NCBI GenBank assembly: GCA_965215945.1
Contig: CBDCFC010000018.1
Coordinates: forward strand, 61,740-125,739
Direction: 5' to 3'
Origin: Arenicellales bacterium
GTDB lineage: Bacteria > Pseudomonadota > Gammaproteobacteria > Arenicellales > JAHEKD01
DNA: 64,000 bases
Below are positions 10,820 through 15,269 of the stretch, in pieces. The position numbers and the translations under genes were made by a program. Numbering within the stretch: the stretch's first letter is position 1; every line of letters starts with the position of its first letter. The notes under the pieces were generated by a model. That model made no database searches. It was not told the origin of the DNA and saw nothing but the letters and a program-made list of their open reading frames with translations.

Positions 10820-11068
10820 AATGGAATTGATTATATCGAAGTCGTTAACAATACTATAATCAATGAGGCTGTAACTTTTGTAAAAGTTAACTCAGGTAGA
10901 ATAGTTTTCGTTGCATTATGAAAAGACAACTTGGCCAACAAGTAAAGTTTCAGATGCAAGTAATAGGTTCGTTGTTTTACTGCAAAAAAATGAGAATGTT
11001 AAATAGTTAACAGAATTATTTTCTAACCGTAAGTAAGATGAGGCTTCTTATACCAAAGGAGATAAAAA

Positions 11069-11326
11069 ATGAAGCTAAAAATAATTTTTACAATAGTAAT
11101 AACTTTATTCACGTTAACAACCTATGCTGGTACTTGGACTTACTCTAATGGAGACGGTGGAGTGATTGTCCACAACGGGCCACGCGGCCATCCGGGTACA
11201 ACACATGTAAATGTAAAAAATGTACGACAAGGCCGGAAGTTAGCCAAAAAGCTCAACAAAATTGCAGAAGAAGATCAGGAAGGTTTTATGGATAATGGAG
11301 ATTGTCCTGAAGGTGTTTTGTGCTAA
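11069..11326 (+). CDS. Small secreted protein, paralogue 1 (C-terminal GFMDNGDCPEGVLC)
   Basis: AAGGAG RBS; signal-peptide-like MKLKIIFTIVITLFTLTTYA; C-terminus shared with the next gene. Confidence 0.8.
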   Translation: MKLKIIFTIVITLFTLTTYAGTWTYSNGDGGVIVHNGPRGHPGTTHVNVKNVRQGRKLAKKLNKIAEEDQEGFMDNGDCPEGVLC

Positions 11327-11348
11327 TTTAAATAATTGGAGAAAAATA

Positions 11349-11603
11349 ATGAATACAAAAACTATTTTATTGATCGCCGCTTTACTCATACTTTCACCTG
11401 TTCAGGCTGGTGAATGGAAAGTGACATATAGCAGCTTTACAAATACTTATGATGTTTCTGATGGTGTTCAGAACCCGATACACTACAAAACCGAAAGGGC
11501 CGCTAATAAGGCAGCCAAAGTACTGAACAAAAACGAGAAAAAAAATGAGAAAGCAAGTGGCTTTATAGATAATGGAGATTGTCCAGAAGGTGTTTTATGT
11601 TAA
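11349..11603 (+). CDS. Small secreted protein, paralogue 2 (C-terminal GFIDNGDCPEGVLC)
   Basis: GGAG RBS before ATG 11349; signal-peptide-like MNTKTILLIAALLILSPVQA; C-terminus shared with the previous gene. Confidence 0.8.
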   Translation: MNTKTILLIAALLILSPVQAGEWKVTYSSFTNTYDVSDGVQNPIHYKTERAANKAAKVLNKNEKKNEKASGFIDNGDCPEGVLC

Positions 11604-11698
11604 ACAAGGCCCTTGAAGTCCACGGTACAATTTCGTACGAGTAGCAATATACTGTACAAAACTAATTTTTATACACTAAAAATTGCTGGTAAATATAA

Positions 11699-12475
11699 CT
11701 AGCTGGCTAGTCCCAGTTTTGCCGGTTCGCGATATTCTTCAAATATGCATAAATGCTCAGTAATGTCTTTTTGCAGCATCGATATTTTATACATATCAAA
11801 ACAAGGCATTAAATCAGCCAGCATGCGGGTTGAGTAACGCGGCGAAGGATGAGAGCGATCATTGGTGAAGTTGGTGCACGTCACTGTGTTATCGGTTGAA
11901 AAATTGTATTGAGCGGGGTTTTTACTAAGAAACTGACTGCTGGAATTGATGAAATACAATAATGTACCTTCATGTGAATAGTTAGAAATAAAGTCCATCA
12001 GATGAACAATATTATCCCGGCTCATGTAATTTAATTGATCCCATAAAATGACTAAGTCCAGCTGATAATCATACGGATGGGCAAATTGGAAAATTTCCTG
12101 ATAACTTTGTAAATCAAGATATTCATCTTTATAGGGTTGAATAACTTCAGAGAAAAGATCAAACAATCGATAATTACAAGGCCATTGCTGGAAAAACTGC
12201 ATTGTCTTGCTGCGTGGTGTGCTTAAATCAAGAATATAATATTTGGTGAGTTGCAGATTGTTAAAAACATTTTGAATTATCGGCAAGCATAATGATTTGT
12301 TTTGCCAATGGCCCGGATTAATGCTTCCCTGTTCACCCGAACCAAGTGTGTAGCGATTAGATGTACGCGTAGATTGCGACGTTGACCCGATATAACCGGG
12401 TTTCGTCTTGATTAACGATTCTGATTTAGGGCGGCGGCTCAACAACGTTGTTTCAATGTATACCTGGACATCCAA
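11699..12475 (-). CDS. Hypothetical protein, possibly degenerate SAM-methyltransferase-like fold, downstream of bactofilin
   Basis: 258-aa ORF; segments YILDLS and LDLVILWDQLNYM resemble class I MTase motifs, but there is no clear glycine-rich motif I. Confidence 0.5.
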   Translation of the reverse strand: MDVQVYIETTLLSRRPKSESLIKTKPGYIGSTSQSTRTSNRYTLGSGEQGSINPGHWQNKSLCLPIIQNVFNNLQLTKYYILDLSTPRSKTMQFFQQWPCNYRLFDLFSEVIQPYKDEYLDLQSYQEIFQFAHPYDYQLDLVILWDQLNYMSRDNIVHLMDFISNYSHEGTLLYFINSSSQFLSKNPAQYNFSTDNTVTCTNFTNDRSHPSPRYSTRMLADLMPCFDMYKISMLQKDITEHLCIFEEYREPAKLGLAS

Positions 12476-12527: not shown

Positions 12528-13070
12528 TCAGGCTTTGGCAGGGTTCTCAATTTTAGTCTGACTACTTTTGCCAGCAGGTGGCGTCGCACCATTTGCCTTT
12601 GATTCTGATGGCTTGCTCTCTCCTGCAAGTTTTTGTTCTTGCATGTCGATACCGCCTCTGAATTGACAACCGTCCTCAAGGACAACCCTAGGCGCAGCTA
12701 TATCGCCTTTGACTTGCCCTGAAGGCTTGACTCTAACTATTTCGGCCGCTTGAACTGTACCGGCAACCTTGCCCTCAATTTCTACGGCTTTAGCACTAAC
12801 GTCAGCATCTATACTTCCTTGTTTGCCTACCGAAAGCATGTTATTTGGCAATGATATGCTTCCTGAGATTTGCCCATGAATGATTAAGTTTTCATTGCCG
12901 GCAATATCACCATTAATACGAATGCTAGGACCAATTGATGCTTGGGGGCCTGACGTTGAAGAACCTGACGCTGAAGGTGTGGAATCTTGACTTAAACTAG
13001 GGCTGTTTCCACCGCCTGGGCGCAATGAGGTTGGTGCGGTATTTTCCGAACTTTCATGTTTTTTAAACAT
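12528..13070 (-). CDS. Bactofilin (polymer-forming cytoskeletal protein)
   Basis: Beta-helix repeats SIGPSIRINGDIAG.ENLIIHGQISGSI...V.IEGKVAGTV...G.VKGDI.APRVVLEDGCQFRGGIDM, flanked by disordered Ser/Pro tails. Confidence 0.92.
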   Translation of the reverse strand: MFKKHESSENTAPTSLRPGGGNSPSLSQDSTPSASGSSTSGPQASIGPSIRINGDIAGNENLIIHGQISGSISLPNNMLSVGKQGSIDADVSAKAVEIEGKVAGTVQAAEIVRVKPSGQVKGDIAAPRVVLEDGCQFRGGIDMQEQKLAGESKPSESKANGATPPAGKSSQTKIENPAKA

Positions 13071-13859: not shown

Positions 13860-14519
13860 ATGATGAATGTGAAATTCATGACAGTGCTGCTGGGCGTTCT
13901 GTTAGTAGTGGGTTTCGTTTCAGTAAAAACTAAACAAACAGAAAACCAATCAATACGTAATGGCTATAAAGTCACGTTGTCCAAGAATAAGACGGCAATT
14001 TTTGTCGCTGGAAAATTTGATCACGGAATATCCGATGAGGTCGCCAAACTCTATCTCGCCAACAAAAACACTGTTAAATCAATCATGTATTCCAGTACTG
14101 GTGGAAAGCTTCACGAATCAATTACGCTTTATCAGCTTGCGCACAAAAACAATCTGAATACTTATGCCATAAACAATTGCATGAGTGCATGTACAACTGC
14201 ATTCGTAGGAGGGCGTAATCGCATTTCACTGGTGCAAACCAAGTTTGGATTTCATCAATTTGGTGCCAAAGGGTATGAGGACATCGAACCTGACAATACT
14301 GTTTTTGTTGCTGCTCAAAATATCAATACGAATTTATTTGAAAAACAAGGTGTGAAAAAGGAGTTTCTAAATCAAATTTATGACGCTGAACATACAGAAA
14401 TATGGAGCCCAAATTTTATTGAACTGCTTAAAGCCAACGTCGTGCACAAATTCGTCTATGATCTCAATACAATTCCTGATTTCGATATTACCAATAAAAG
14501 ACTTTATCCTGATATTTGA
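13860..14519 (+). CDS. Exported protein with ClpP/crotonase-like fold (COG3904-like)
   Basis: N-terminal hydrophobic segment; SSTGG...C.SACTTAFVGGRNR...GFHQ pattern. Confidence 0.6.
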   Translation: MMNVKFMTVLLGVLLVVGFVSVKTKQTENQSIRNGYKVTLSKNKTAIFVAGKFDHGISDEVAKLYLANKNTVKSIMYSSTGGKLHESITLYQLAHKNNLNTYAINNCMSACTTAFVGGRNRISLVQTKFGFHQFGAKGYEDIEPDNTVFVAAQNINTNLFEKQGVKKEFLNQIYDAEHTEIWSPNFIELLKANVVHKFVYDLNTIPDFDITNKRLYPDI

Positions 14520-14792: not shown

Positions 14793-15269
14793 ATGGGACT
14801 TATACACGCGCAAGTTAAATTAACTAATATCTCAATTAATCAAGCTATTGAGATTAGGGCAGTTGTTGATACTGGTATACCTTTCATGTGTGTGACTGAG
14901 GAAATGACTGTCCAACTGGGTTTCGATCTTTCTGAGTCCAGTGCACAGCATGTAATGACGATCGATAACCAACAAGTCTTGCTTCCAAAAATTTCACCAA
15001 TTGAAATTGAATTTGAAAATCGATCTTATGTGACAGAGGCACTAGTTTTAGCTGATGAAGCATTGATGGGGATGATTCCGCTTCAGGCGATGGATTTGGT
15101 AGTTGATCCAATACAACAAAAATTAATAGTAAACCCTGCACATCCTAATTATCCGCTTGTATTGGCTAAGAGTATAAACACTACAACCAATTGGAGTAAC
15201 AGAAGTAAATATTTTGAGTCGAATTGGCACCATTTTTTAGTTATATCGCAAGAAACCCACTGTTCTTAG
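14793..15269 (+). CDS. Clan AA (retropepsin-like) aspartic protease
   Basis: MGLIHAQVKLTN start, catalytic VVDTG and LMGMIPLQAMDLVVDP. About 30 extra residues after NPAHPNYPLVLAK overlap the tniQ 3' end. Confidence 0.8.
   Translation: MGLIHAQVKLTNISINQAIEIRAVVDTGIPFMCVTEEMTVQLGFDLSESSAQHVMTIDNQQVLLPKISPIEIEFENRSYVTEALVLADEALMGMIPLQAMDLVVDPIQQKLIVNPAHPNYPLVLAKSINTTTNWSNRSKYFESNWHHFLVISQETHCS

Follow-up and report, generated by a model that had tools for sequence, protein, structure and literature searches.

The locus lies in a stretch of 64,000 nucleotides from an Arenicellales genome (G000), referred to here as the window, and consists of two small tandem genes on the forward strand. The upstream gene, of type B (ORF1, 11069-11326, +), is a real ORF preceded by a Shine-Dalgarno sequence (AAGGAG, 11056-11061, +) and encodes an 85-aa protein, P0001. 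The downstream gene, of type A (ORF2, 11349-11603, +), starts with an ATG at 11349 and encodes the 84-aa protein P0002. An intergenic spacer of 22 nt (11327-11348, +), with a GGAG at 11338-11341, lies between them, and GGAG is found 7 nt 5' of the ATG in both genes. The short spacing suggests co-transcription of the B and A genes. Their promoter is presumably held by the AT-rich non-coding segment upstream (10823-11068, +), in which a sigma-70 consensus scan called no promoter.

Codons 1-20 of each gene encode a signal peptide (11069-11128, + in P0001; 11349-11408, + in P0002). By direct reading both signals are of the Sec type, with an n-region that contains Lys, a hydrophobic core of 13-15 residues and an AxA-like site for cleavage. 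Cleavage is predicted at TYA↓G in P0001 and VQA↓G in P0002, and the mature N-termini are G-T-W and G-E-W, respectively. Each protein carries a basic helix, RKLAKKLNK in P0001 (a helix with KLAKKLNK) and NKAAKVLNK in P0002 (within AANKAAKVLNK), and each has a linker from head to tail. The linker of P0001, IAEEDQE, is without a basic residue or basic cleavage site, and that of P0002, NEKKNEKAS, is Lys-rich; both mature proteins are near neutral, with a pI of about 7. The preliminary description of this DNA, made from the sequence alone, had reported two small signal-peptide proteins with basic helices and a common C-terminus, and all of these are present in both ORFs. Its statement that the two share only the tail was wrong. 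Their bodies are homologous, with cores 35% identical; BLASTP aligns P0001 and P0002 at 41% identity over 70 residues (E 4e-13), and the profile of the family described below scores them at E 6e-28 and 5e-18.

Both C-termini read GF(M/I)DNGDCPEGVLC and then the stop codon. The tail of B (GFMDNGDCPEGVLC plus stop codon, 11282-11326, +) and the tail of A (GFIDNGDCPEGVLC plus stop codon, 11559-11603, +) were returned by the repeat search as a 45-nt direct repeat of 89% identity (repeat D2). Over the last 14 codons, 5 of 42 nt differ between the genes; four of these changes are synonymous and one gives the M/I exchange. Judging from the Cys spacing, Cys79 and Cys85 of P0001 would close a seven-residue ring at the extreme C-terminus, the corresponding residues of P0002 being Cys78 and Cys84; this putative ring is read from the spacing and falls where confidence in the model is low (pLDDT about 51). 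The tail is acidic, without any hydrophobic stretch. The search of the genome for the tail pattern, proposed earlier, was run in six frames over the whole 3.36-Mb assembly and found the motif in the two window ORFs only.

These properties bear on the earlier suggestion that the tail is a sorting or anchoring signal, that is, a C-terminal tag read by a dedicated sorting enzyme. The element does stand at the extreme C-terminus, is conserved and is common to two proteins, but the motif is followed by no hydrophobic segment or basic stop-transfer cluster, it marks only two ORFs in this genome whereas known tags mark many proteins per genome, the 877-bp cassette that holds the pair contains no sorting enzyme, and across lineages the tails vary and no neighbour is conserved. 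We consider a sorting tag extremely improbable. PEP-CTERM and GlyGly-CTERM-type tags, which combine a motif, a hydrophobic helix and a basic cluster and occur on several proteins per genome, were rejected as counterparts on the same grounds.

Homologs were collected by a word-indexed search of 5.8 billion protein clusters, phmmer over 1.8 billion representatives and a profile search. The resulting family comprises 33 proteins of 71-93 aa from the roughly 5.8 billion clusters, to which the genome search added one pair. The preliminary description had recognized no family, and indeed no Pfam, NCBIfam or PADLOC model matches: searches of Pfam, NCBIfam, PADLOC and PHROGs with single proteins and with all 33 members gave nothing above threshold, and Pfam gave no match for P0001 or P0002 at E 10. 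The sole recurrent weak match was to a phage family, phrog_1747, reached by 7 of the 33 members over positions 21-61 (best E 2e-4). Searches of 50,697 phage records, 72,556 plasmids and the IMG/VR contigs turned up no relative, and for this reason a phage or plasmid origin was rejected. One phmmer match, P0014 (2216 aa), was discarded as false, being due to the repeated Y.VTYDVSD..GN strand of Ig-like/HYR repeats. No fused or longer forms of the family were found. Members share a common plan: a signal peptide, a core some 40 residues long, a linker that is charged and varies in length, and a short tail. A Trp one or two residues past the predicted cleavage site is invariant, and the core ends in a Lys/Ala-rich helix with a near-invariant A..AK.(L/M/I)NK. 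The family to which P0001 and P0002 belong is real, very rare and without a name or model in Pfam or NCBIfam.

The carriers belong to the Gammaproteobacteria, Burkholderiaceae and Nitrospirales, and the source metagenome-assembled genomes (MAGs) are labeled Nitrospirales, Burkholderiaceae and Chromatiales. The Arenicellales genome and a Chromatiales-labeled MAG fall in the same GTDB class. Only one of 243 genomes of its own order, G000 itself, has the family, as do 3 of 400 GTDB species genomes in the class sample. Two of 401 genomes matched in the phylum sample, the second (G010) falsely, as its weak match is an unrelated gene within a type IV pilus cluster.

In a maximum-likelihood tree built from the cores, types A and B separate with 99/99 support and in 98% of bootstrap trees, P0001 falling in the B clade and P0002 in the A clade. 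The type A core has the signature ..A↓EW.V....F...Y.VSDG... (the arrow marking the cleavage site), and the type B core ..↓(G)TW..., an NG-centered second hairpin and KK(L/M)NK in the helix. With such a split in the core tree, the duplication that produced A and B took place, on sequence grounds, before the carrier lineages diverged. Six A/B couples lie on one contig each in the protein table. At the DNA level three loci were read, namely the window, the Chromatiales MAG locus (L005) and a locus of genome G946 from the class search (L027), and this reading left out the long contigs of P0003/P0032, P0004/P0033, P0008/P0024, P0016 and P0019. B precedes A in all three, with spacers of 22, 40 and 48 nt, respectively. 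The search found no B partner for the A-type P0016, which is on a 556-kb contig, and the contigs of some other A-type members are too short to reveal one.

Each head is followed by a charged linker, not constant in length, and then by a short acidic, Gly/Pro-rich tail. The B and A tails match within each of four lineages and differ between lineages. Lineage c1 (G000 and two relatives) has GF(I/M)DNGDCPEGVLC; lineage c2, of the Nitrospirales type, has KEGKGFKDDGDCPPGLRC; lineage c3, of the Chromatiales MAG type, has VMAGPDGQGDYRPGG.LP., without Cys; and lineage c4 (G946) has ..DG..CDDP(R/N)SGV(V/R)C. The tail types found between lineages are thus Cx5C, Cx8C and Cys-free, and A-type members from short contigs add further ring variants, Cx6C and Cx8C. 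Two members, P0007 and P0013, have no tail. In most members two Cys can, going by their positions, close a ring at the extreme C-terminus. When A and B of the same genome are compared, the cores are 20-39% identical and the linker plus tail 61-88%; when the same type is compared across lineages, the cores are 27-41% identical and the linker plus tail 16-52%. Compared across lineages, the head equals or exceeds the tail in conservation in 5 of 6 cases, the exception being type A between c1 and c2, and among close relatives the tail is the best-conserved part.

The preliminary description had taken the excess of synonymous changes in the window tails as a sign of purifying selection, and the same was seen again in the other two DNA-level loci: B and A differ synonymously in 10 of 14 conserved tail codons in L005 and in 4 of 8 in L027. 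Since so many synonymous differences separate matched tails, it is selection that keeps the peptides alike, and not recent gene conversion. Matched tails would also result if each lineage had undergone gene conversion long ago and selection had then acted on each tail separately. The earlier proposal had depended on homologs that conserve the tail, and in this it was half right: the CX5C pattern is not family-wide, but a tail matched between the partners is kept. Distant homologs with other tails, Cys-free ones and the two tail-less members indicate that CX5C is not the essential feature.

The composition of the tails also raises the possibility that they bind Ca2+ or another metal, the proteins serving as a periplasmic buffer or as a Ca-stabilized envelope component. 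All tail types contain Asp/Gly-rich stretches (DNGD, DDGD, DDGSG, PDGQGD, DPDG), and at the motif level we take them to resemble DxDxDG-type loops such as those of Excalibur and thrombospondin type-3 repeats, which also contain Cys. By direct reading, however, the spacing departs from canonical DxDxDG, and among the Pfam families listed at E 0.5 (the 25 most frequent of 32) there was no Excalibur, TSP_3 or EF-hand match, the motif being too short for a profile to decide. Metal binding moreover leaves both the difference between lineages and the match within pairs unexplained, and we regard it as very unlikely.

AlphaFold models built on the family alignments place strands of P0001 at residues 24-28, 31-35 and 46-49 and a helix at 52-68 (head pLDDT about 75), and strands of P0002 at 24-28, 33-37 and 44-46 and a helix at 49-69 (head pLDDT 87-90). 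The tails have a pLDDT of about 51-58 across the models of both proteins, with about 51 in P0002. A and B are predicted to share the same fold order, strand-strand-strand-helix, with the sheet packed on the Lys/Ala-rich helix. A Foldseek search of the A model against the PDB gave nothing at E <= 0.001. When VIA-align compared the same model with 48,161 chains, the highest Z was 5.0, for the three-strand-plus-helix half of PH domains, which is a common arrangement and uninformative. The best score in an ESM Atlas search was 0.83, to unnamed clusters, and the family profile run against PDB sequences returned only de novo designed Lys/Ala helices, which were set aside.

The genomic setting of the window pair was compared with that in two sister species (G002 and G003). 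There, the same slot holds a gene for a 386/387-aa PLP enzyme, by eye D-threonine-aldolase/alanine-racemase-like (candidate gene at L013:3025-4188 in G002 and L015:336-1496 in G003). The slot is bounded by an M20 peptidase gene and by a convergent 248/258-aa gene following bactofilin. In G000, similarity to the sister species ends at about 10822 and is back at 11700, where the convergent 248/258-aa gene has its stop, and the 1.2-kb sister-species stretch is replaced by 877 bp (10823-11699) with the pair alone inside; the downstream non-coding end of the replaced segment is 11604-11699. No remnant of the PLP-enzyme gene is left in G000. The GC content of the replaced stretch is 0.35-0.37 (0.35 in 10823-11068) versus 0.425 for the genome, and the pair is flanked by core genes that are in synteny within the genus. 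The possibility that the pair is Tn7 cargo was rejected because of these core-gene flanks and because there are no Tn7-like end repeats on the pair's side. As the preliminary description had stated, no modifying enzyme is adjacent to the window pair.

At the Chromatiales MAG locus, the pair sits in a 1.5-kb low-GC islet (0.41-0.47 versus about 0.65) beside a vapBC-like module, and the one match of the metagenome scan, contig L008, is a second copy of this arrangement. Convergent to that pair is a gene for a NarE-like ADP-ribosyltransferase of 146 aa (L005:4964-5404, -; PF21641, E 9e-25), without a signal peptide. A link to NarE was rejected, as G000 has no NarE and the neighbors in G946 differ. 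In G946 the pair is divergent from a unit of PepSY, OmpR-type response-regulator and histidine-kinase genes. Downstream of the G946 pair (L027:5377-9003, -) are exported proteins of 691 aa (porin-like by eye) and 513 aa (Gly/Ser-rich), with no Pfam match. No neighbor is common to the pair loci of G000, G711 and G946, and therefore the pair is a self-contained unit; we read it as a cassette that moves horizontally.

Small periplasmic immunity proteins and lysozyme inhibitors protect the envelope, and such settings could be those of orphan immunity or inhibitor proteins directed against a toxin, enzyme or phage protein from other organisms. Small Sec-exported tandem paralogs with a patchy, island-like spread and no adjoining cognate toxin would fit this explanation, as would the islet shared by the L005 pair with an ADP-ribosyltransferase beside vapBC. 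But neither PADLOC nor any immunity family gave a match, immunity proteins are not known to have a flexible tail matched between two paralogs, and the NarE-like neighbor, itself without a signal peptide, has no counterpart in G000. Overall, an immunity function is distinctly unlikely.

The composite reading that we favor, with a probability of roughly 0.35, is that B and A are an exported pair whose tethered end-loops address one common partner. Both proteins would be exported by Sec, their signal peptides removed and their heads folded, after which the periplasmic Dsb system would close the C-terminal ring. DsbA-like genes are present in G000; DsbB and VKOR were not found in its 92%-complete assembly, although both sister species have DsbB, and this is probably an assembly gap. 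B and A would then act together, most simply as a heterodimer, and their two like tails would be loops tethered on flexible charged linkers, either binding one common partner as a bivalent ligand or pairing tail to tail. The head would be the constant working part and the tail a lineage-specific specificity element; we take the tail as such since tails match within pairs and differ between lineages. The cassette would require general host machinery only, that is, Sec, signal peptidase and Dsb. Its patchy spread and island-like sites suggest that it has an accessory function in binding or blocking, either at the envelope or extracellularly.

The main rival to tethered loops is that B and A are pre-pro-peptides. 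The head would then be a pro-region, the last 10-20 residues would be released as a mostly disulfide-cyclized peptide acting as a signal or toxin, and both B and A would serve as its precursors. This accounts for the same tail on two precursors and for the tail being best conserved among close relatives; the Lys-rich linkers of most members could serve as cleavage sites, and an immunity gene would be unnecessary if the producer lacks the target. The layout is also like that of E. coli STb, with a Sec signal, a basic helix, a KKGF..G.RDG..G.C stretch and a C-terminal disulfide Cys. Yet in 5 of 6 cross-lineage comparisons the head is conserved at least as well as the tail, the reverse of typical pro-regions, and the head is predicted to fold. 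The A and B head types have been distinct since before the lineage split, the type-B linker of c1 (IAEEDQE) has no basic residue, two members have a head without a tail, and similarity to STb is not significant. The option of a released peptide, raised in the preliminary description, is for these reasons less likely than a tethered loop; we judge it unlikely, and the pair is probably not a precursor of a modified or released peptide.

The likeness to STb merits a closer comparison, for which the STb sequence was taken from plasmid CP055625.1 (locus L022:232-444). As in the pair, the Sec-exported precursor has about 70-90 aa, a basic helix and a disulfide Cys as its last residue, and its Lys-Lys-Gly-Phe ... 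Gly-x-Arg-Asp-Gly ... Gly-x-Cys resembles the tails of P0011 and P0010 (KK..G(V/F).DDG.G.C). STb is, again like the pair, a small mobile genetic unit (in its case a single gene) on general host machinery; heat-stable enterotoxins need only Sec, Dsb and a general exporter. STb is an animal-directed toxin with two disulfides, a helical mature form without a beta-sheet head, and no paralog pair. The family profile aligned to STb with an hhalign probability of 4%, BLASTP of P0011 against STb gave E 0.006 (a single comparison, 11 of 35 identical), and neither phmmer of P0011 nor the family profile returned the STb structure from the PDB sequences. The likeness is best described as an analogy of layout, not membership.

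Other systems of small exported proteins resemble the pair in part. Lactococcin 972 (TIGR01653) has a similar size and a Sec signal, and its mature N-terminus is x-G-T-W-like. One of the 33 members, P0002, matches the TIGR01653 model, at 14.1 bits (E 0.043), below the cut-off of 32.1 bits; lactococcin 972 is moreover an all-beta sandwich, in contrast to the three strands and helix predicted for the pair, and no multi-pass membrane immunity protein or ABC transporter lies within the 877-bp segment. Class IIb (two-peptide) bacteriocins and class II microcins have a double-glycine leader, a C39-peptidase ABC exporter and an immunity gene in the locus; they were rejected because the pairs have Sec leaders and no exporter or immunity gene in the three loci. 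Entericidins A and B (ecnAB) are tandem paralogous, very small exported envelope proteins that form a toxin-antidote pair, but they are 40-50-aa lipoproteins, lack both a folded head and a Cys-closed tail, and have no sequence relation to the pair. The 'Rana box' frog peptides (brevinins) have a cationic helix followed by a C-terminal seven-residue Cys-x5-Cys ring. This ring has the same size as that of c1, but it is cationic and that of the pair acidic, and the frog peptides have no folded head.

Bufferins are Sec-exported, Cys-bearing periplasmic RiPPs modified by MNIO enzymes, and their precursors adjoin the MNIO enzyme (PF05114) and a DUF2063 partner (PMC11626156, PMC12452194). The window pair differs in that its neighbors are the M20 peptidase and the 258-aa protein followed by bactofilin, with no MNIO or DUF2063. 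The only MNIO in G000, at C18:156461, is 83 kb from the pair and has its own 86-aa precursor. DUF2282 and BUF_6/12Cys precursor domains were absent among the 25 most frequent of 32 Pfam families reached by the 33 members at E 0.5. RiPP and bacteriocin readings of the pair are not supported.

To our knowledge, there is no described counterpart for two ancient exported paralogs with selection-matched end-loops. What is new is the pairing rule itself, namely ancient exported paralogs whose end-loops are matched by selection in four lineages, and the useful result is evolutionary rather than functional: tails matched within pairs and variable between them mark a specificity element. A stronger reading would make the pair the first case of a new kind of two-component exported system, with a constant heterodimeric head presenting two copies of a short, lineage-specific tethered loop as a recognition code. 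The code would be a signal of the pherotype kind, or else a ligand or toxin specific for a receptor and co-evolving with its target. This reading as a whole lies well on the unlikely side. The logic would be comparable to the specificity groups of peptide pheromones and bacteriocins, but here with Sec-exported folded proteins and without a dedicated enzyme or exporter. No part of bacterial genomes is less well understood than the small exported proteins. A loop that served as a recognition code would make the pair a minimal system, of two genes, for recognition at the envelope or between cells; otherwise the pair only adds to the rare accessory gene pairs. With about 35 sequences among billions, the family is so rare that its general importance is limited.

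A few further genes were observed along the way. The gene bounding the slot (11699-12475, -) encodes the 248/258-aa protein, has no Pfam match and lies directly downstream of the bactofilin gene (12528-13070, -); its start is probably 10 codons inside the listed ORF. It is conserved in the sister species, its 90% cluster has 8 members, and its product may be a bactofilin partner. The ORF at 13860-14519 (+) encodes 219 aa, has a hydrophobic signal or anchor at its N-terminus and gave no above-threshold match to any family. At 14793-15269 (+), between the core genes and a Tn7-like element, lies an ORF of 158 aa whose VDTG motif gives it the look of a retropepsin-type aspartic protease. Outside the window, G000:C18:156145-158558 (L020:1184-3597) holds a complete bufferin-type cluster with the 86-aa Cys-rich signal-peptide precursor, the MNIO gene (PF05114, E 4e-105), a gene for 258 aa placed where the DUF2063 partner would be, and a candidate DoxX-like membrane protein assigned by eye.
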